This document shows positions 25,789-55,992 of a DNA stretch of 64,000 nucleotides, piece after piece. The notes under the pieces are model-generated. The model saw nothing but the letters and a program-made list of their open reading frames with translations, made no database searches and was not told the DNA's origin. The stretch is from positions 2,114-66,113 of the forward strand of contig MFZK01000021.1 in assembly GCA_001789395.1 (NCBI GenBank), written 5' to 3'. Each line of letters starts with the position of its first letter. Positions within the stretch are counted from its first letter, which is position 1. Made by a program: the position numbers and the translations under genes. The stretch comes from Candidatus Roizmanbacteria bacterium RIFCSPHIGHO2_02_FULL_37_13b. Its GTDB lineage: Bacteria; Patescibacteriota; Microgenomatia; UBA1406; HO2-37-13b.

Positions 25789-26322
25789 TTATTTTTTTCT
25801 ATTTAAGATTGTTAACATTATCTTACCTTGCATTTTTATTTCCGATCGTTGTGCGACATCATTCAATTCATTTGTAAAACTATTTATTAAATCTTGCGCC
25901 ATAGGTTTTTTGCCTAATTCTCGTCCTCTTAGCGGTAGCGATATTCTTACTTGATGGCCGTCATGTATAAAATCTCTTGTTTTATTTAGCATACGTTGTC
26001 TGTCCATAGGTCCTATGAACAAAGAGAGTTTAATATCTTTTGTTCCTCCTCTTTTTGCCCCTTTTTTTGCATCTTTATTCTTCTTATTTTCCTGATATAA
26101 AAACTTTTTAAAATCGATTAACTTTGCAACTGGTGGTTGACTTAACGGCGAAACTAAGACCAAGTCTTTGCCAAATTCTTTGGCGAGATTCAAGGCCTTA
26201 TCTTTGTCCATGATACCTAGAAATTTACCAGAATCATCAATCAATCTCAATTGAGAAGCAGTAATCTGGTAATTTAGAAGAAAGTGCTTTTTATTCCTTT
26301 CCCGATTAAATTTTTTTATCAA
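25789..26322 (-). CDS. infC: translation initiation factor IF-3
   Basis: ITASQLRLIDDSGKFLG plus the conserved infC-rpmI-rplT order. The called start is TTG and overlaps the thrS 3' end. A non-ATG start is typical of infC. Confidence 0.85.
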   Translation of the reverse strand: MIKKFNRERNKKHFLLNYQITASQLRLIDDSGKFLGIMDKDKALNLAKEFGKDLVLVSPLSQPPVAKLIDFKKFLYQENKKNKDAKKGAKRGGTKDIKLSLFIGPMDRQRMLNKTRDFIHDGHQVRISLPLRGRELGKKPMAQDLINSFTNELNDVAQRSEIKMQGKIMLTILNRKK

Positions 26323-28066
26323 CTTGATCTAATAAAGTCTTTACAAACTCATTAATTGAACTTTGTCCTAAATCTTTTTCTCGGCTACGTATTGATGCTA
26401 TGATGTCGTTATTTTTACTAGCTGCTACTTCCTTTTCACCAATTATACAAAGATATGGTATCTTTTGCAATACTCCCTGACGTATCTTTGCGCCAAGCGG
26501 TTTATTATCTTTATCTATGATTACTCTAATATTTGCTGCAGTTAATAAGTTATATACAGATTGACAATAATCGAGAAACTTATCAGAGACGGGGATTATC
26601 ATAACTTGCACCGGAGAAAGCCAAAGAGGAAATGCTCCAGCATAATGCTCAATCAAAATAGCTAGAGTTCTCTCTAATGATCCCGTTAAACCGCGATGAA
26701 TTATTACGGGATATTGAGGGTTACCTTTTTCGTCGGTATAGATTAGTCCCAACTTTTTCGCCATGAATAAGTCCAGTTGGAGCGTACTCATTTGCCAATC
26801 ACGTCCTAGTGAATCTTGGACAATGAAATCAATCTTAGGACCATAAAATGAAGCTTCGCCTTTGGCTATTTTAAAGTTTAGTTTGTTAACATTGATTATG
26901 TTTTGCAGAATCTGTGATGCATCATCCCAAGTTTTTTTATCTGCGATATATTTAATAGAATCAGAAGGATCTGCCAGAGATAATCGTACATAATACTTGT
27001 GTAAACCAAACGCGGTAAACATTTTTTTTATCAAGTTCAAACATAGTTCAAATTCACTTTCAATCTGATCTTCTCTCATTAAAATATGACTATCATCTAT
27101 AGTCAACGCTCTAACTCGCAATAATCCCGCCACCTCACCGCTTTTTTCATAACGGTAGCAGGTGCCGGGTTCGGTCAATCGAATCGGCAAATCTCTGTAG
27201 CTTCGCGGCTTGCTTTTGTAGATGCTATAGTGATGTGGACAGTTCATCGGTTTCAATACATATTCTTCATTATCGATTCCGAATGGTTGATACATTACTT
27301 CTTTGTAATGTTGAAAGTGACCAGTCTGGCGGTAAATTTCAGTTTTAGCAATGTGAGGGGTCCAAACATGAGAAAATCCCGCTCTAGATTCCAACTCGTA
27401 TTCGAAGTCAAGTATAGATTTTCTGATAATATAACCTTTTGGCGTAAGTAAAGGTAATCCTTTACCGATGTTATCGTCAATAACGAAAAGATCAAGACTC
27501 TTCCCTAATATTCGATGGTCTCGTTTCTTTGCCTCTTCAAGTTGCCAAAGATATTTATCAAGTTCATCCTTTGATGGGAAACATGTTCCGTAAATTCGGG
27601 TGAGCATTTTGTTTTTTTCGTCTCCCCGCCAATAAGCACCGGCGACTGACAGAAGTTTAAAATGTTTTAAGTCATGCGACGGATTATCAACGTGACCCAT
27701 TTTACATAAATCAAGAAAGTCACCTGGATCGTTAGTTTGAAGCTGTTTGCCATCCTTAGCAAATTCTTTTGCCAGTTCAATTTTATATGGGTTATCTTTG
27801 AAAAGCGCCCGTGCTTCATCAAGTGTGACTTCATTAAATATAAATTTTTTCCATTGAGGAAGAATCTGTTTCATTCTCTTTTCAATCTTTGCTAAATCTT
27901 CTTCAGAGATTTTTACTTTACCAAAATCAAAGTCCTGATAAAATCCATTTTCAATAGCTGGACCAATAGCATTGTGTGTCCCTGGCCATAAATCCTTGAC
28001 AGCTTTTGCCAGCAAATGAGCGCATGAGTGACGAAGATTTTGAAGATAGTCGTTTTTATTTTCCAT
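26306..28066 (-). CDS. thrS: threonyl-tRNA synthetase lacking the N-terminal TGS domain
   Basis: 586 aa. The HSCAHLLA editing-domain motif already appears at residue ~14. Class II catalytic and anticodon-binding regions follow. Confidence 0.9.
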   Translation of the reverse strand: MENKNDYLQNLRHSCAHLLAKAVKDLWPGTHNAIGPAIENGFYQDFDFGKVKISEEDLAKIEKRMKQILPQWKKFIFNEVTLDEARALFKDNPYKIELAKEFAKDGKQLQTNDPGDFLDLCKMGHVDNPSHDLKHFKLLSVAGAYWRGDEKNKMLTRIYGTCFPSKDELDKYLWQLEEAKKRDHRILGKSLDLFVIDDNIGKGLPLLTPKGYIIRKSILDFEYELESRAGFSHVWTPHIAKTEIYRQTGHFQHYKEVMYQPFGIDNEEYVLKPMNCPHHYSIYKSKPRSYRDLPIRLTEPGTCYRYEKSGEVAGLLRVRALTIDDSHILMREDQIESEFELCLNLIKKMFTAFGLHKYYVRLSLADPSDSIKYIADKKTWDDASQILQNIINVNKLNFKIAKGEASFYGPKIDFIVQDSLGRDWQMSTLQLDLFMAKKLGLIYTDEKGNPQYPVIIHRGLTGSLERTLAILIEHYAGAFPLWLSPVQVMIIPVSDKFLDYCQSVYNLLTAANIRVIIDKDNKPLGAKIRQGVLQKIPYLCIIGEKEVAASKNNDIIASIRSREKDLGQSSINEFVKTLLDQVDKKI

Positions 28067-28153: not shown

Positions 28154-29446
28154 TCATTTAATTATTCTACCAAATAACTTGTCTTTTTGATACTTGATAA
28201 CCTCAATTCTTTTGATATCTCCCGGTCTTATCGATGTTTTTTCAACATACACTGGAACTTGATTATCTAAGAGAACCTCTTGTATGCTGTCTGTATTTTT
28301 TAAAAACAATGCGTTACTTTTATAGCCCAAAAGACTTTTCTGAAACGCTTCAAACTTTTCATCTGATAATTCTCGAAGCAATCGAGAACGTTCAATTTTA
28401 GTTTTATTATCAGGTTCTTTCAGTCTTTTTGCTAAATAATAACCGGCAGTCATTTCTCTTTTGGAAAATCTGAATACGTGAAATTTTGAAATTGGCGATT
28501 TATCAAGAAAATTATAAGTATCTTTAAAATCATTATCTGTTTCCTCGAGAAACCCAACAATAATGTCTGTTGATATAAAAATCCTTTTATTTATCGACGC
28601 GAGTCGTTTTACTCGATCTATCATGTCTTCTCTTGTATGACATCGTTTCATTAGGGTGAGTATTTTATTTGAACCGGATTGAAGAGGAATATGAAAAAAA
28701 TTGACTAAGCGATTGTTTATTTGCTCTTGTTGATAAAAATCGATAAATTCGTTTGTTATACTCCAAGGATGAACGGATCCAAAACTTAATCTAGGAACCT
28801 TCGTATTTTTTAACACCGATTTAATAAGTTCTATGAAACCTTCGTTTGAATCTTTGCCAAATGCTTCGGTATTTATAGCAGTTAAAACAACTTCTTTAAT
28901 ATTGTCTGAGGAATGATTTATGGTATTCACTATTTCTTTGATTGGTATAGACTTTGGTAAACCCCGTAAATATGGAACAATGCAGAATGAACAAAATCGA
29001 TGACAGCCATCCTGAATTTTGACCAATAATCTTCCAGATAACAAAAATTTGTCGGATAGTATATCAACCACTTTCGGACGGCCGTCTAAAAGTGGTATAT
29101 TCTTTAACAGTTTATTTTTAATTAATTGGACTAAGTATTCTTTTTGGAGATTATCAGTAATTAAGTCAACGGGTAAATCGGTATATTTGCCAGACTTTAA
29201 CCAATATGTGCTGCAACAGCCGGTGACGACTATCTTGGTCTGAGGTTGTTTTTTTCGAACTTGGTAGATAAGTTGTCTGGCCTCCCTTTCTGCTTTTTGG
29301 GTGACAGAGCAGGTATTAATGATATATATATCAGGCTCTACAGTAGTTTGTTTAAAACCTTTGATAATCATTTGTCGATCAATTTCTTCTTTTTCCGCTA
29401 TATTTACTCGACATCCAAAACTAAAAGAATCAAAGGTGGGTGGCAT
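28154..29446 (-). CDS. radical-SAM methylthiotransferase (MiaB/MtaB-like tRNA-modifying enzyme)
   Basis: N-terminal UPF0004 cysteines (FGCRVN, NTCSVT, GCC), a CxxxCxxC radical-SAM motif (CHRFCSFC), and a C-terminal TRAM-like region. Confidence 0.8.
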   Translation of the reverse strand: MPPTFDSFSFGCRVNIAEKEEIDRQMIIKGFKQTTVEPDIYIINTCSVTQKAEREARQLIYQVRKKQPQTKIVVTGCCSTYWLKSGKYTDLPVDLITDNLQKEYLVQLIKNKLLKNIPLLDGRPKVVDILSDKFLLSGRLLVKIQDGCHRFCSFCIVPYLRGLPKSIPIKEIVNTINHSSDNIKEVVLTAINTEAFGKDSNEGFIELIKSVLKNTKVPRLSFGSVHPWSITNEFIDFYQQEQINNRLVNFFHIPLQSGSNKILTLMKRCHTREDMIDRVKRLASINKRIFISTDIIVGFLEETDNDFKDTYNFLDKSPISKFHVFRFSKREMTAGYYLAKRLKEPDNKTKIERSRLLRELSDEKFEAFQKSLLGYKSNALFLKNTDSIQEVLLDNQVPVYVEKTSIRPGDIKRIEVIKYQKDKLFGRIIK

Positions 29447-29467
29447 AATTAGAATTAAATTTTATCA

Positions 29468-29866
29468 TTACATCGCAGTATCTTCAAAAGGAGGAGGCGC
29501 TGCTCGATTACCGACGAAGAGATGAGATGCTCTACTGACGACGTTTTTAAGCGCGTGGATGATGTTTTTGAAAAAATGTGGTAGATGATGACGGGCAGCT
29601 GGTTGGGCTTGAGTTTGATGGGTATCGACGGGATTAGACATATCAATTATTGGGTGTTCTTCTAACAGTTGAGTATGTAGTGCATCTCGGATTACGCTTT
29701 CAGCACCTACACGTACGGAGTCATCTGCTGTCGGATCAGGATCGGAATCAACCATAGGTCTATCTCCTTCATCCCTAAAAGTAGGTGATGGAATTGCAGG
29801 TTCTCGATTTGGAGTTCCATTAGCTATTACTTCGACTCCTTCTATCTCCGGAGCAGTATCCGCCAT
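29468..29866 (-). CDS. orphan acidic, Pro-rich, probably disordered protein in a GC-rich island
   Basis: Uninterrupted 132-codon ORF. My hand count is 182 G+C in 399 nt (~46%), against ~32% in the first 100 nt of the adjacent gene. TATAAT (29880-29875) lies 8 nt upstream of the ATG. I recognise no family. Confidence 0.55.
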   Translation of the reverse strand: MADTAPEIEGVEVIANGTPNREPAIPSPTFRDEGDRPMVDSDPDPTADDSVRVGAESVIRDALHTQLLEEHPIIDMSNPVDTHQTQAQPAARHHLPHFFKNIIHALKNVVSRASHLFVGNRAAPPPFEDTAM

Positions 29867-29887
29867 ATATAAATATTATAGACTATC

Positions 29888-30412
29888 TTACATTACCGAG
29901 CGAGTATTTTGAAGTTCTTGAGAAAGAGAATATTGAGTGCCTTTCTTTTTTGATAAAACAGCAAATAATGAACCCCGTTTTTTCTTTTTTGTCTGCATTG
30001 CTGACAGCCAGGTTTTTGCTTCAGTTGCTTTTGCACGAAGATCGCGAATTAAGCTGAGTAAAATTTCCAAGAAATGAATGTGGTAGATACCACCTTTTTC
30101 AGATATGGTTTGAAACGCAGCGTTTTCTATTTCTTCAGCTTGTGTTACTAGTTGCTTTTGAGATAATTTCAACGCCTTGATTTCTGCTCTAATCTCATCT
30201 TTTAATGATTCTATTTCTCTTGGGATCAATTCATTTTCTTGGTATTTTTGGTGACTGAATATTGTAAATTCCAGTCGTTGACTAAATCTAGAGACTGGTT
30301 TTTCGTTAGAAATTTGATTGGTTTTTGACTCTGCAGAACTACCTCGCCAACTTGGTAGTTTTTCGATATCATTTTTCTTATTTGGATCTTGCCACTTACC
30401 CATTGTTTTCAT
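29888..30412 (-). CDS. hypothetical coiled-coil protein
   Basis: 174-aa ORF with local AT-rich composition. The central region has heptad-like charge repeats and the C-terminus is basic. I recognise no family. Confidence 0.5.
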   Translation of the reverse strand: MKTMGKWQDPNKKNDIEKLPSWRGSSAESKTNQISNEKPVSRFSQRLEFTIFSHQKYQENELIPREIESLKDEIRAEIKALKLSQKQLVTQAEEIENAAFQTISEKGGIYHIHFLEILLSLIRDLRAKATEAKTWLSAMQTKKKKRGSLFAVLSKKKGTQYSLSQELQNTRSVM

Positions 30413-30435
30413 GGTTAAATTATAATATTATTATA

Positions 30436-31308
30436 CTACAGGCCAAGTAAATAATCAAGTGTTTTCTGGCGACGCACTAATGATGCGTAAAAATAAGAAT
30501 TTTTTTCAGCTTCTTTTCTTTTTTCAGGTTCTTTTATTTGAGAAAATAAACTTTCTAAATCAGCTTTTTCAACGACTATTTTTGCTTCTTCGGCAATTGC
30601 TTCAAGAGCAAATTCTAATTTATAGGTTTCCTCAATTTCCGTCTTATACTTGTTTTTGATTGATTCCATGGTTTCGTTCTTTGATTGTAGATATGCTTCC
30701 ATTTTTAATCCAATTTTACTGACATCATCCACCAATTGAGATAATTTTTTATTCAGTTCTTGTTCAATGATAATGTCAGAAATTTCTATTATGGTTTTTT
30801 TTAGAAGTACTTCAAGAATCTTATTTAATGTCTTTGACTGTTTTTGTTTAATTTGATCTTCAGTTTCTTTTTGTTTGTCTTTACCGGGAACCCATATATC
30901 GTCCTGTTTTAATTCTGCCTTAGCTTTTTTTATTTCATCTTGATAATTATTTAAATTAATGATCGGTTTTTGGGCGACTATAATTCTTAAACTCCAATCT
31001 TCATTTTCCTTTGCCTTTAGAAGTGACACTTGTGGTGGTACTAACGGTTGTAAATTTTCTTGTTTTATCAAATCCGAGTAAAGTTCCGGTATTAATAGTT
31101 CGACCAATTTCTTATAAACAAGATCCTTTTTAATATGTTTTGATAATATATTTTTCGGTGCTTTGCCGCGTCTGAAACCTTCGATTTGAGTCTCTGCTGC
31201 AATCTGATCGAATGCAGCATCGTATTTATCTTGAACTTGTGACCAAGTCACATTAACATCAAATTGAAAAGTGTTTTTACCGAGATCTTTTTTTATTGAA
31301 TTTGTCAT
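30436..31308 (-). CDS. tig: trigger factor, short form without PPIase domain
   Basis: The GFRRGKAP ribosome-binding signature is near residue 45. At 290 aa, the N-domain runs directly into C-domain-like helices. Confidence 0.75.
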   Translation of the reverse strand: MTNSIKKDLGKNTFQFDVNVTWSQVQDKYDAAFDQIAAETQIEGFRRGKAPKNILSKHIKKDLVYKKLVELLIPELYSDLIKQENLQPLVPPQVSLLKAKENEDWSLRIIVAQKPIINLNNYQDEIKKAKAELKQDDIWVPGKDKQKETEDQIKQKQSKTLNKILEVLLKKTIIEISDIIIEQELNKKLSQLVDDVSKIGLKMEAYLQSKNETMESIKNKYKTEIEETYKLEFALEAIAEEAKIVVEKADLESLFSQIKEPEKRKEAEKNSYFYASLVRRQKTLDYLLGL

Positions 31309-31515: not shown

Positions 31516-32055
31516 TTATAGAAGATAAGATAATCGTTTTAACCTATTTTCCTCCTGATAAAATTTAGCAATGAATTTATTGACACGGGCAGCCCATGTA
31601 GGTGAAGCTGCGTATTTCCGTCCGATGTCAGAAATTGTCTCAGCACCGCGGTCATAATATTTAAATCTTAATGATCGGCTGATAGTGAAGATACCATGAG
31701 GCCAGCTTTCGAAAGATAAGTGGCCTCCACCCCATCCGTAGGCATTAAACGTATTTTCTTTCATTCTTTTACCAAAGGACGATTCCAGGCCGGATATGGA
31801 AACCAATAGATATGGGTCGATATTATAGGCATAACTCGCTGTTAAGTAATCATGAGTATATAATTTTAATATCGAATTATTTTTAGCCAAAACGTTTTCC
31901 ATCGCCTTTTTTTGGATATAGTATTCACGAGATTGATTTAATGCCGATTTCAAAGATGCTGAACCGGTGTGAATCATTTCCACTGCACTAATACCAGATG
32001 ATGTGCAATGGAACAGAGCGACTAGAAAAATGATGGAAATTATTTTTTTTGTCAT
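31516..32055 (-). CDS. secreted lysozyme-like peptidoglycan hydrolase (SLT/glucosaminidase superfamily)
   Basis: Signal-like MTKKIISIIFLVALF from the ATG at 32055. ISGLESSFG...NAYGWGG is a catalytic-Glu-type motif. It is a paralog of the next gene. Confidence 0.6.
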   Translation of the reverse strand: MTKKIISIIFLVALFHCTSSGISAVEMIHTGSASLKSALNQSREYYIQKKAMENVLAKNNSILKLYTHDYLTASYAYNIDPYLLVSISGLESSFGKRMKENTFNAYGWGGGHLSFESWPHGIFTISRSLRFKYYDRGAETISDIGRKYAASPTWAARVNKFIAKFYQEENRLKRLSYLL

Positions 32056-32116
32056 ATATAAAAAAGATCCCAAAGCCAATCTAGAGACTTCTAGAAGAAC
32101 CTTAGGATCTGATAAG

Positions 32117-32145
32117 ATTATAACATATTATTATAGGTTTGTCAA
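32117..32145 (-). promoter_or_regulatory. consensus sigma70 promoter
   Basis: On the minus strand, TTGACA (32145-32140), a 17-nt spacer, then TATAAT (32122-32117). Both hexamers are perfect consensus. It lies upstream of the 32055 hydrolase gene. Confidence 0.65.
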
Positions 32146-32189: not shown

Positions 32190-32780
32190 TTATTCAAGAA
32201 GGCTCATAAAGTGATTAACCGCAAAGGACCAGGTCCCCGGAGAATGCGGCGCGTATTTTGCCATGACCTCAGAGGGCGTGGTTAACCCTTTATCCACATA
32301 TAATCGCTTAATTCCGTCAGATACTACCTTTATACCCTCTTCATAACCACTGAATCTTCGAACGTTGCTACCGGTTATATCCCATCCCCAACAATTATAT
32401 GAGTTTTCAGGAATCTTCTTGCAGAGAGTCGATTCCTGCATAGCAATTGCAGGCAAGATCCGGTAGTCAAGGCCATGTTTATCAGCTTCTTGGACTATTA
32501 AGTCAGCATAGGGAAACAAATCGCTATTATATCGCCTGAAGAAACTCATTAGGTTAAGAGCTCTGCTATCAGCTGTCTTTACTTCAGTCTCAATCGATCC
32601 AAGGACCAAAGGTGCGGCAGAAAAAGCAAATTGATTTGCTTCTAGAGAAGCCTTATCAATCTCGCTAAGAAGCAATGATTGTTTTTGTGATATCGAATTA
32701 GCATAAGTAATCTTAGCGACAAGCATGAAATTCGTAATATAGATGATAATAAATAATACAGCCAGCAGAATTTTATTCAT
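32190..32780 (-). CDS. secreted lysozyme-like peptidoglycan hydrolase (paralog)
   Basis: N-terminal TM/signal segment. AIAMQESTLC...NCWGWD aligns with the motif of the downstream paralog. Confidence 0.6.
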   Translation of the reverse strand: MNKILLAVLFIIIYITNFMLVAKITYANSISQKQSLLLSEIDKASLEANQFAFSAAPLVLGSIETEVKTADSRALNLMSFFRRYNSDLFPYADLIVQEADKHGLDYRILPAIAMQESTLCKKIPENSYNCWGWDITGSNVRRFSGYEEGIKVVSDGIKRLYVDKGLTTPSEVMAKYAPHSPGTWSFAVNHFMSLLE

Positions 32781-54267: not shown

Positions 54268-55992
54268 CTAATACTCTTCAAGAGTTGAGGTATCCCCTAT
54301 TGGAAGACCTAATTCTTTTGCTTTCAATATTCTTCTCATTATTTTTCCAGATCGAGTTTTAGGTAGATGGTCTACAAATTCAATTTCTCTTGGGTAAGCA
54401 TGACCCGCAAGATTCTTTTTAACAAACATTGATAATTCTTCTTTAAGCTTATCTGATTGTTTAAAGGTGGGTTTAAGGACGACAAAGGCTTTTATTATTT
54501 CGCCACGCATTGGGTCTGGTTTACCTATCACGCCGGCTTCAACGACTGCCTCGTGAGCGACTAGAGCGGATTCAACTTCAAATGGTCCAACTCGTTCTCC
54601 CGCAGTCTTTATAACATCATCTGCTCGACCGACAAACCAATAATATCCGTCCCTATCCTTATATGCTAAATCTCCCGTAATATACAGCTTCTTTTTGAGG
54701 TCTTTGGAATATAAAAAGTATGACTGATATTTTTTTGGTCGTCGCCAGACTTTTTTCATCAATGATGGCCAATTTGGCTCAAGTGTGAGATTGCCAACCT
54801 TATTAACGCCAACTTCGTCACCGCTCTCTGCGATAATGTGTGGTTTTATACCCGGAAAAGGTTTGCCCATACTACCAGGTTTAATCGGTAATGCTGCATA
54901 ATTAGCAATGACAATGCCACCCGTTTCAGTTTGCCAATAATTATCATGGAAGGGTAAGTTAAATGCTTTTAAACCCCATCTTATAGGCTCAGGATTAAGG
55001 GGTTCACCAACAGATGCAAGAAATCGAAGACTGCTTAAGTCATATTTTTTTACTTTGGTTAGTCCTTGGGAAGCCAGCATGCGAATAGCTGTAGGAGCTG
55101 TATACCACACGGTGACTTTAAGTTTTTCAATGATTCTATACCAACCGTCAGCACTAAATCGACCCGGAAAAACGACCGTTGACGATCCACAAGCCCATGA
55201 TCCTAATATTTCATAGGCAATTCCCGTGACCCAACCCGGATCTGCCGTACACCAGTAAATATCGCTATCTTTAATATCTAAAACCCATTTCGCGGTTAAA
55301 TACTCATGAATAATTGCCTTATGTTGATGTACAATCCCTTTTGGTTTACCTGTGGTTCCTGAAGTATAGAGCATAAAAGCATCATCTGTCATGTCTGTTT
55401 CAGTGGTATTTAGAACGTCTGAATATTTATCTATCTCTGTCATTAAACCCTTGTCAATTAAAAGAATTCTTTTTAGATTTGGTAATTTATTTCGAATCGA
55501 TTTAAGACGTGTTGCCATTTCAGAGTTAGTTATTAGAAATTTGGCTTCAGATTGGCTGAGTCTGTCAAATATTGCTTGAGGACCGAAAGCTGAAAACATT
55601 GTTCCAGCAATGGCTCCTATTTTTAGAATTCCAATAAAAGATATATACAATTCAGGTACTCTTGGTAAAAAAATAAATACTCTATCACCCCTATTGCAAC
55701 CTATTGCTTTCAAGAAATTTCCCAGTTTATTAGAAGATAGCTCAAGGTCTAAGAAAGTGTATTTATTTACCGATTCATTTTCATCAACATAATAAAGTGC
55801 GACTTTATTTTTTCTATCAGAGAGAGCGTTTTTTGTGATAGCATTATATGCAGCGTTGATATGACGGGGGGAAAACCAAACTAGTTCACTAATATGTTTA
55901 TCATAATGAAAACCTTCGACTGCTTTTGAGTAATCAGGTAAATTAGGCGGCGATTTTAGATATTTATCTTTATGAATTGTGTCCACTATCAA
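54268..55992 (-). CDS. acs: AMP-forming acetyl/acyl-CoA synthetase
   Basis: AMP-binding signature YTSGTTGKPKG and a C-terminal PKTRSGKIMRR motif. Confidence 0.8.
   Translation of the reverse strand: MIVDTIHKDKYLKSPPNLPDYSKAVEGFHYDKHISELVWFSPRHINAAYNAITKNALSDRKNKVALYYVDENESVNKYTFLDLELSSNKLGNFLKAIGCNRGDRVFIFLPRVPELYISFIGILKIGAIAGTMFSAFGPQAIFDRLSQSEAKFLITNSEMATRLKSIRNKLPNLKRILLIDKGLMTEIDKYSDVLNTTETDMTDDAFMLYTSGTTGKPKGIVHQHKAIIHEYLTAKWVLDIKDSDIYWCTADPGWVTGIAYEILGSWACGSSTVVFPGRFSADGWYRIIEKLKVTVWYTAPTAIRMLASQGLTKVKKYDLSSLRFLASVGEPLNPEPIRWGLKAFNLPFHDNYWQTETGGIVIANYAALPIKPGSMGKPFPGIKPHIIAESGDEVGVNKVGNLTLEPNWPSLMKKVWRRPKKYQSYFLYSKDLKKKLYITGDLAYKDRDGYYWFVGRADDVIKTAGERVGPFEVESALVAHEAVVEAGVIGKPDPMRGEIIKAFVVLKPTFKQSDKLKEELSMFVKKNLAGHAYPREIEFVDHLPKTRSGKIMRRILKAKELGLPIGDTSTLEEY

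Follow-up and report, generated by a model that had tools for sequence, protein, structure and literature searches.

A GC-rich orphan gene in the tig–DUF5660–mtaB string of two sister Candidatus Roizmanbacteria species: composition, restricted distribution and a possible origin by insertion

Why does a short GC-rich open reading frame (ORF) stand between conserved housekeeping genes in an AT-rich genome, and is it foreign DNA, an RNA gene or an ordinary protein-coding gene? The ORF in question, here called the orphan, lies on the minus strand at positions 29468-29866 of a 64,000-nucleotide stretch of contig MFZK01000021.1 (positions 2,114 to 66,113; assembly GCA_001789395.1), which we refer to as the window. 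The source is an uncultured groundwater bacterium from the Rifle aquifer, Candidatus Roizmanbacteria. The orphan has 132 codons followed by a TAA stop and is the only frame that is open both in this genome and in that of a sister species. Its product is deposited as GenBank OGK20041.1 / OGK53129.1 (hypothetical protein A3C23_03600, Candidatus Roizmanbacteria), and the exact protein is assembled on 21 contigs from several samples, which speaks to its presence only. An initial annotation of the window, made from the sequence alone, drew attention to this ORF, and the translation quoted there is identical to the computed 132-residue product. We suggest that the orphan is a real, taxonomically restricted gene that was gained by insertion, captured an existing promoter and encodes an adaptor-type product. 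As a whole, we put the probability of this explanation at roughly 0.6.

The compositional island is real. The G+C content (GC) counted by hand in the initial annotation, 182 of 399 nt, is borne out (45.6%), as is the contrast with the adjacent gene, put there at about 32%: the mtaB-like neighbor has 32.8%, the DUF5660 gene on the other side 34.9%, the trigger factor gene beyond it 30.8% and the whole window 34.1%. The orphan has the highest GC among the 55 non-overlapping ORFs of at least 90 residues in the window (z = +3.6), a value that just 0.44% of all 399-nt segments reach. The orphan stands out at the first and second codon positions only. Its GC at positions 1, 2 and 3 (GC1, GC2 and GC3) is 66%, 44% and 27%, respectively. 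GC1 lies 4.3 standard deviations (SD) above the mean of the window genes, whereas GC3 (27.1%) matches their mean of 26.9 ± 3.6% (z = 0.04; rank 26 of 55). The synonymous codon-usage score, 0.106, is within 1 SD of that of the native genes (0.138 ± 0.039). Moreover, when the amino-acid sequence is re-encoded with the synonymous codon frequencies of the window, a GC of 45.8% is expected and 46.0% is observed. Ala, Pro, Asp, Glu, His and Val are abundant in the product, whereas Lys, Asn and Tyr, towards which AT-rich genomes bias their proteins, are scarce. The GC-richness of the orphan is thus a consequence of the amino acids that it encodes, written in the AT-biased synonymous codons of the genome. 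Since the excess is confined to codon positions 1 and 2 and GC3 is native, there is no compositional sign of recent horizontal transfer, and the argument from composition by which the initial annotation had considered a recent acquisition fails. Hence, a GC island in an AT-rich genome need be neither foreign DNA nor an RNA gene, and a check of GC3 settles the question. Four other stretches of the window reach a GC of 0.45 or more; three of these contain tRNA genes and the fourth falls in the protein-coding gene at 32190-32780. A weaker peak (0.441, at 54499) lies within the protein-coding gene at 54268-55992.

Is the open frame maintained by selection? The conserved DUF5660 protein encoded upstream was used as a handle to locate the corresponding loci of relatives. 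In one sister species (loci L038-L043), whose DUF5660 protein is 81% identical, the same slot holds a 136-codon ORF. The two products align at E = 7e-9, with 36% identity both in the 85-residue alignment and across the full set of 124 aligned columns. Neither species has a stop in the annotated frame, while each of the other five frames has 3-14; when the 399 nt are shuffled, a fully open frame survives in only 22 of 5000 cases. The ORF begins with M-x-D and finishes with ED..M-stop in both species, and the GC pattern over the three codon positions is kept, at 68/42/28% in the sister species. Synonymous sites are saturated between the two species in all genes of the neighborhood (synonymous differences per site, pS, 0.67-0.83). 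Given this saturation, the retained excess of GC1 and GC2 points to selection, as neutral drift would have pushed positions 1 and 2 towards 27%. For the orphan, nonsynonymous differences per site (pN) amount to 0.43 and pS to 0.67, and the ratio of the corresponding rates, dN/dS, is at most 0.4; because dS is underestimated owing to saturation, the true ratio is lower. At the same time, the gene evolves rapidly: its dN is 0.65 as compared with 0.12-0.41 in nine neighbors, i.e., 1.6 to 5 times their nonsynonymous rate. Retained in both species are the reading frame with its length and start, the skewed composition, two predicted helices and a C-terminal peptide. With frame, start and stop conserved at saturated synonymous divergence and pN below pS, these comparisons argue with high confidence for a genuine protein-coding gene that is constrained and fast-evolving.

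Variation within each of the two species adds little. Contigs of the window species from five samples are 99.99-100% identical to the window, which makes them uninformative on constraint, and E69G (P0001) is the single variant observed in this species. In the sister species, the ORF differs only by three nonsynonymous changes (D113Y, H117P and I121F) on one contig (L043:1419-1446, corresponding to L038:4205-4229). They fall within the last 30 nt of that contig and are probably contig-end assembly errors rather than polymorphism.

How widely is the gene distributed? According to the initial annotation, the product resembles nothing recognizable, and broad searches agree. Searches with the orphan protein using phmmer against 1.84 billion cluster representatives, and with a word-indexed method against 5.8 billion protein clusters, returned the self-match only, and a profile built from the two sequences retrieved only the two orthologues from 5.8 billion clusters. 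A six-frame hmmsearch of 45 related loci revealed no further copy, and no homologue was present in viral contigs and phage records. Pfam-A, NCBIfam, PHROGs and PADLOC, searched at lenient thresholds (E <= 1-10), yielded no family for either orthologue; the best matches in a sequence-profile search of the PDB had E-values of 0.29 or worse, and Foldseek against the PDB, with a low-confidence model as query, gave no match. The orphan therefore belongs to no curated protein family and corresponds to no solved structure in these collections. A metagenome scan with a concatenated DUF5660 and orphan query recovered only L032, a DUF5660 relative that lacks the orphan.

The gene is present in the window and in the L038 species and absent from L001, L044, L046, L047 and L048. 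It is thus confined to two sister species of Candidatus Roizmanbacteria, both from the Rifle aquifer. The presence/absence check in sister genomes that the initial annotation had proposed shows the orphan in one sister species and the same slot without it in the next relatives. Its suggestion of a fast-evolving lineage-specific gene also fits well, as there is a single syntenic orthologue at 36% identity, flanked by proteins that are 54-83% identical between the two species. In these respects, there is nothing extraordinary about the orphan: taxonomically restricted, fast-evolving genes with intrinsically disordered products are well known, and they are common in genomes of the candidate phyla radiation (CPR). 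Like other orphan genes with disordered products, it is short and fast-evolving, has no homologue beyond two sister species and is inserted in a conserved gene order. However, many orphans match the composition of the local non-coding DNA, whereas this one is GC-biased at codon positions 1 and 2, a bias that is kept in both species.

The gene order offers a view on how the orphan arose. All genes of the region are on one strand, in the order tig–DUF5660–[orphan]–mtaB-like–tRNA-Val–thrS–infC–rpmI–rplT–pheS–pheT. The gene upstream, at 29888-30412 (-), is in frame with the orphan, at a distance of 21 nt, and encodes a coiled-coil protein of the DUF5660 family (PF18904). Downstream, the gene at 28154-29446 (-), which starts 21 nt past the orphan stop, encodes a radical S-adenosylmethionine (SAM) methylthiotransferase of the MiaB/RimO family that is closest to MtaB. 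In relatives whose DUF5660 proteins are 57-66% identical to that of the window, mtaB comes directly after DUF5660. The DUF5660–mtaB spacer measures 21 nt in L001, 27 nt in L046, 57 nt in L044 and 76 nt in L048/L049; in L032, it is 213 nt long and of unrelated sequence. A neighbor-joining tree based on trigger factor and DUF5660 has the topology (L044,(L001,((window,L038),(L046,L047)))), in which the lineages without the orphan are paraphyletic around the clade of the window and L038 species. With paraphyletic outgroups, one gain on the stem of this clade fits, while ancestral presence would require at least three clean losses. A single gain by insertion on the two-species stem is therefore favored, though not proven. 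Such an insertion would predate the split of two synonymously saturated species and would hence be old rather than recent.

The slot itself also varies in other lineages. The spacer of L032 (L032:1022-1234) holds GC-rich inverted-repeat units (CATTCTGGCAAGCGAGGAACGAGCGCGTCCAGAATC and GATTCTGGAGTCGCTCC...CCCCAGAATG) that look like small palindromic repeats and are unrelated to the orphan. At L047:4568-6199, mtaB is missing and a 61-residue ORF and a 175-residue ORF with a faint RHS-repeat match are found instead. It appears that genes have repeatedly come and gone in the slot past DUF5660.

What drives the orphan? The TATAAT that the initial annotation had placed 8 nt before the ATG is found at 29875-29880 (-); between this −10-like hexamer and the start codon are 8 nt (ATTTATAT), and a Shine-Dalgarno motif is lacking. 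No acceptable −35 element accompanies it, and our promoter scan did not call the site. In addition, promoter-like matches are no commoner in the window than in shuffled sequence (19 vs 15.4 ± 3.9), and the argument for a promoter therefore rests on conservation across species rather than on the hexamer. TATAAT-N6-ATG precedes mtaB in four outgroups (L001, L044, L046 and L048), and looks like a conserved leaderless mtaB promoter. At these junctions (L001:6397-6420, L044:5547-5606, L046:1588-1617 and L048:864-942), the element is kept, whereas the rest of the spacer cannot be aligned. The window likewise has TATAAT(AT) past the DUF5660 stop, with the ATG of the orphan 8 nt on. In the sister species, the orphan is preceded by TTGACT-17-TATACT-N9-ATG, which agrees with the consensus at 10 of 12 positions. 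Together, these features suggest that the TATAAT of the orphan is probably the ancestral mtaB promoter element, with leaderless-type spacing, that now drives the orphan. The remark in the initial annotation that the site is promoter-like is thus better supported than a lone hexamer would allow, by the junction TATAAT in four relatives and by a gap of about 8 nt being the commonest in the window.

This spacing is frequent in the genome. Of the 55 ORFs, 13 have a −10-like hexamer whose end lies 6-9 nt ahead of the start, most often 8 nt, and only one has a Shine-Dalgarno-like tetramer (GGAG, GAGG or AGGA at −20 to −4). With its hexamer at this distance and no Shine-Dalgarno motif, the orphan has the sequence features of a leaderless gene, and the pattern suggests that leaderless or near-leaderless, Shine-Dalgarno-independent initiation may be common in this Roizmanbacterium. 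Our literature search returned nothing on leaderless mRNAs in Roizmanbacteria; one paper (PMC9297842) reports loss of the anti-Shine-Dalgarno sequence only in a subgroup of Parcubacteria. The mtaB-proximal junction also carries a promoter-like element, TTGAAG-17-TAAAAT with an upstream TG (29459-29487, minus strand), 12 nt before the mtaB ATG. There, TGATAAAAT starts directly past the orphan stop, 12 nt before the mtaB ATG, its counterpart in the sister species standing 9 nt before; TGATAAAATT is common to this junction in both species.

These observations are consistent with the following sequence of events. About 420 nt would have been inserted on the stem of the two-species clade, inside the conserved tig–DUF5660–mtaB string, and would have landed within the few bases that separate the mtaB start codon from the conserved TATAAT −10 element. 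This −10 element, with its leaderless-type spacing, could then have passed to the new ORF, leaving mtaB preceded by a TGnTAAAAT-type element beside the stop codon of the new gene. The two ends of the putative insertion (window 29867-29890 and 29459-29473) are alike: ATGTAAGATA occurs past DUF5660 and ATGTAATGATA past the orphan, and the counterparts in the sister species are GATGTAAT and GATGTGAT. The shared ATGTAA(T)GATA was considered as a target-site duplication and rejected, being too short relative to what chance, i.e., a Met codon and a stop, would give.

What kind of protein does the orphan encode? The product has a mass of 14.4 kDa and an isoelectric point of 4.9. Residues 1-54 (29705-29866, minus strand) are acidic, with a net charge of −9, rich in proline (8 Pro), predicted to be disordered and the least conserved part (pN 0.49). 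They fall on the disordered side of the charge-hydropathy boundary, and AlphaFold2 gives them no secondary structure at a predicted local distance difference test score (pLDDT) of about 46-52. The acidic N terminus and the proline-rich, probably disordered character of the protein that the initial annotation had described are thereby borne out. Residues 1-54 are followed by a conserved amphipathic helix 1 (residues 55-70; 29657-29704, minus strand; AESVIRDALHTQLLEE, in the orthologue AQDIIAEALRTRLAAQ), which the initial annotation had missed; A55, I59, A62, L63, T65, L67 and H71 are invariant in this region. A Pro/Gln/His-rich linker that is predicted to be disordered (residues 71-94; 29585-29656, minus strand) leads to helix 2 (residues 95-119; 29510-29584, minus strand; LPHFFKNIIHALKNVVSRASHLFVG), which is conserved, strongly amphipathic and His-rich. 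This is the C-terminal amphipathic helix that had already been noticed; its hydrophobic moment is 0.61 (residues 95-112), and the helix that AlphaFold2 places at 95-119 has a pLDDT of about 75, higher than any other part of the protein. Hydrophobic residues are spaced in a heptad-like manner, with pairs every 3-4 residues, and the ASHLF motif is invariant. The C-terminal tail (residues 120-132; 29471-29509, minus strand) has an acidic-aromatic end, PPxP[FY]ED..M-COOH, in which E128, D129 and M132 are invariant together with R121, P124 and P126.

Models of each orthologue, computed separately, place the helices at homologous positions (55-70 and 95-119 in the window species; 55-70 and 99-123 in the sister species). 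The models are of low confidence, with a mean pLDDT of 55, a predicted template modeling score of 0.2 and a non-helical coil that is mostly below 55. Histidine makes up 6.1% and 6.6% of the two proteins. The C-terminal 77 residues of the orphan hold 8 His, and 8 likewise lie in the C-terminal part of the orthologue. The region around helix 2 is basic; residues 93-121 have a charge of +4 and contain five His and no acidic residue. Both the charge split and the His enrichment are common to the two orthologues. The hydropathy profile, which is not a dedicated predictor, shows no signal-like hydrophobic core at the acidic N terminus MADTAPEIEGVEV, nor is there a membrane span: over 19-residue segments, the Kyte-Doolittle mean peaks at 0.62 (1.1 in the orthologue), less than is usual for transmembrane segments. 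By these measures, the product has the features of neither a Sec/Tat-secreted nor a membrane protein.

This architecture raises the possibility that the product is a cytoplasmic fold-on-binding adaptor, a tentative proposal to which we give clearly less than even odds. In this scenario, the largely disordered acidic protein would stay in the cytoplasm and act through short modules that fold on binding, i.e., helix 1, the His-rich helix 2 and the PPxP[FY]ED..M tail. These modules would dock onto a partner, the foremost candidate being the coiled-coil product of the neighboring DUF5660 gene; alternatively, they might target the inner side of the membrane. The acidic N-terminal half might serve as a flexible, solubilizing or autoinhibitory arm. 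A proto-gene without much function, or a membrane-active effector-like precursor, is less likely than an adaptor, and neither has positive evidence in its favor. The DUF5660 gene is the immediate neighbor of the orphan, separated from it by 21 nt and in frame with it, and the two are probably transcribed together. However, their sequences are not related, and their identity between the two species differs widely (81% for DUF5660 vs 36%).

Comparison with known systems shows partial likeness. The anti-sigma-28 factor FlgM is a disordered regulator that folds on binding. The orphan product resembles it in length (about 100-130 residues), in being mostly disordered, in C-terminal helices that would form only on a partner and in having no enzymatic domain; it differs in having no Pfam match at E-values up to 10, the FlgM family included, and no flagellar or sigma-factor gene in its context. 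MinD and FtsA carry amphipathic membrane-targeting helices near their C termini, and the strongly amphipathic helix of about 20-25 residues near the C terminus of the orphan is alike in this respect (moment 0.61). That helix is not terminal, however, since the acidic Pro-rich tail follows it, and the chain that carries it is disordered and acidic, not an ATPase; the heptad-like character of the helix suits helix-helix packing as well as membrane binding. Precursors of ribosomally synthesized and post-translationally modified peptides (RiPPs) are likewise encoded by small ORFs directly upstream of a radical-SAM enzyme gene. At 132 residues the orphan is long for such a precursor and lacks a Cys-rich core, and the neighboring enzyme belongs to the housekeeping MiaB/RimO family. 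Since that gene sits at the same position in relatives without the ORF, it is not a dedicated maturase, and the RiPP reading was discarded.

Several points weigh against the combined explanation. The status of the orphan as a gene derives from sequence comparison, and the conservation statistics are based on two orthologues with saturated dS. The neighbor-joining tree has no support values; were the outgroups to form one clade, the distribution could be accounted for just as well by a single loss. The amino-acid composition is far from what AT-rich DNA yields, which makes the inserted DNA hard to derive locally. The gaps of 21 nt and the lack of terminators make it just as plausible that DUF5660, the orphan and mtaB share a transcript that starts at the putative promoter upstream of DUF5660, in which case the TATAAT would have no separate role. 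Finally, the case for binding a partner is built on architecture and gene adjacency together with low-confidence AlphaFold2 models.

Would an older origin explain the distribution? The gene might have been present in the ancestor of the wider clade and then deleted in L001, L044 and L046/L047. The missing support values leave some room for this scenario, and the small genomes of the CPR, the group that includes Roizmanbacteria, lose genes readily. It would take at least three independent clean deletions, each restoring the TATAAT-N6-ATG junction, however, and the six-frame hmmsearch detected no remnant of the orphan in any outgroup. We regard repeated loss as improbable. The same low standing applies to birth de novo from a locally expanded DUF5660–mtaB spacer, which would make the orphan a young proto-gene with little or no function. 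A product that is disordered, changes fast at nonsynonymous sites (dN 0.65) and has no homologue outside two species is what this scenario would predict, and the junction spacer does expand in relatives (21, 27, 57, 76 and 213 nt). Yet the outgroup spacers are unlike the ORF: none resembles the inserted ~420 nt, and no paralogue was found in protein databases that hold the proteome of this genome. A GC1 of 66% and a product rich in Ala, Pro, Asp and His are the opposite of what non-coding DNA of 27-34% GC would encode. Moreover, frame, length, composition and three motifs have outlasted the saturation of synonymous sites, which points to selection rather than drift.

For the product, the main rival to a cytoplasmic adaptor is a membrane-active or host-directed effector, in which the anionic N-terminal pro-region would mask a cationic His-rich helix that acts on the cell's own membrane or on that of a host. 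CPR bacteria are often episymbionts, and the charge of +4 with five His and no acidic residue in residues 93-121, the moment of 0.61 and the N-terminal half at −9 could suit such a role, all the more as the charge split and the His enrichment recur in both orthologues. The prospects are nonetheless slim. No signal peptide, transmembrane segment or processing site was identified, and no transporter or secretion gene is nearby; the gene is part of a housekeeping operon, and a conserved acidic tail follows helix 2. Its likeness to His-rich amphipathic peptides is at most putative. The secreted or host-interaction effector suggested in the initial annotation thus finds no positive support in a protein with an acidic N terminus, no signal-like core and no membrane span. 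We give slightly less credence still to a related proposal, in which a cassette of unrecognizable source captured the leaderless-type promoter and encodes a pro-peptide-like product. Its anionic disordered half would hold a cationic, pH-sensitive His-rich amphipathic helix in check until this helix meets a membrane, and the protein would be a lineage-specific factor by which an episymbiont interacts with its host cell. A variant of this proposal, with the orphan as a new substrate or regulator of the adjacent MiaB/RimO-family methylthiotransferase, is weaker.

On the same very low footing as that cassette proposal is the recent horizontal acquisition of a GC-rich island from a donor of higher GC. 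A GC of 45.6% against 34%, the highest of the 55 ORFs, invites this reading, as do a slot that is without the orphan in the nearest outgroups and variable between lineages. However, GC3 equals the genome mean, synonymous usage is native and the GC excess is fully predicted by the amino acids; the deviation in GC3 and synonymous codon usage that a foreign island should show is absent here. The same pattern in a synonymously saturated sister species means that any transfer would be older than the split; presence among close relatives is indeed patchy, but the event precedes a deep species split. No donor homologue was found among the 5.8 billion clusters or in the viral collections. There are no mobility genes, long direct repeats or significant repeats in and around the ORF, the ATGTAA-type junction repeat is weak, and the flanks are conserved housekeeping genes. 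Insertion at a tRNA is not indicated either; the tRNA-Val gene, which is conserved in the sister species, is 1.3 kb from the orphan. Least probable is that the orphan is not a gene and represents a GC-rich structured RNA or repeat element with a chance open frame: despite the tRNA genes in three of the four other strongest GC peaks, this reading is effectively refuted by Rfam (no match at gathering score; noise only, E at least 0.56, in a permissive scan), by a folding energy that is not better than that of shuffled sequence (z = +1.76 sense, +0.45 antisense), by repeat finding and blastn-short, which detected no internal or dispersed repeats, and by strong codon-position periodicity in a frame conserved in two species.

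If the orphan was gained by a single insertion, as we favor, the locus would offer a clean, datable gene gain inside a tight housekeeping operon of a streamlined CPR genome, with an insertion point that can be placed within a few bases of a leaderless-type promoter. Should the product bind the DUF5660 protein, it would in addition provide a handle on a widespread Microgenomates family. Otherwise, the orphan is one of very many uncharacterized lineage-specific CPR genes.

The DUF5660 gene had been described in the initial annotation as a coiled-coil orphan. It is instead a member of the Pfam family (E = 5e-26) with more than 200 relatives, and the family is widespread in Microgenomates, with over 200 matches at E <= 1e-30; our literature search found no papers on DUF5660 / PF18904. 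A promoter-like site, TTGATT-17-TATAAT, lies ahead of the gene at 30430-30458 (-), and its hexamers and spacing are identical in the sister species. The DUF5660 proteins of both orphan-bearing species (29888-30412, minus strand, and L038:3281-3811) are without the N-terminal (I/F)FDQ(F/L)(F/L)G-like motif of many relatives. That this loss is tied to the gain of the orphan is doubtful, as about half of 120 family members do not fit the pattern used for the motif, which they have lost or carry in degenerate form. The mtaB-like product on the other side scores 303 bits against TIGR00089 (cut-off 251) and 305 bits against the MtaB model, which is under the cut-off of 357 for that model.

Other genes of the neighborhood have features of their own. 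The trigger factor at 30436-31308 (-) is 290 residues long and consists of Trigger_N and Trigger_C, with no peptidyl-prolyl isomerase (FKBP) domain between them; in all related loci the length is 287-295 residues. The threonyl-tRNA synthetases of the sister species (26306-28066, minus strand, and L038:5703-7460) are only 54% identical, while the genes flanking thrS are much closer (mtaB 69%, IF3 80% and DUF5660 81%), and accelerated evolution or replacement of thrS in one lineage is possible. The gene at 32190-32780 (-) encodes 196 residues without a Pfam match and has the highest GC3 in the window (38.6% vs a mean of 26.9%). Its composition is more transfer-like than that of the orphan, yet it is conserved, with 83% identity in the sister species, and its homologue is the convergent neighbor of DUF5660 in distant Roizmanbacteria. 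The plus-strand ORFs that are conserved after DUF5660 in these distant relatives proved to be the antisense of the convergent conserved gene and carry no meaning. Finally, a site that agrees fully with the sigma-70 consensus (TTGACA-17-TATAAT, 12 of 12 positions, preceded by a TG) is located at 32117-32145 (-), ahead of a lytic-transglycosylase-like gene of 187 residues at 31516-32079.

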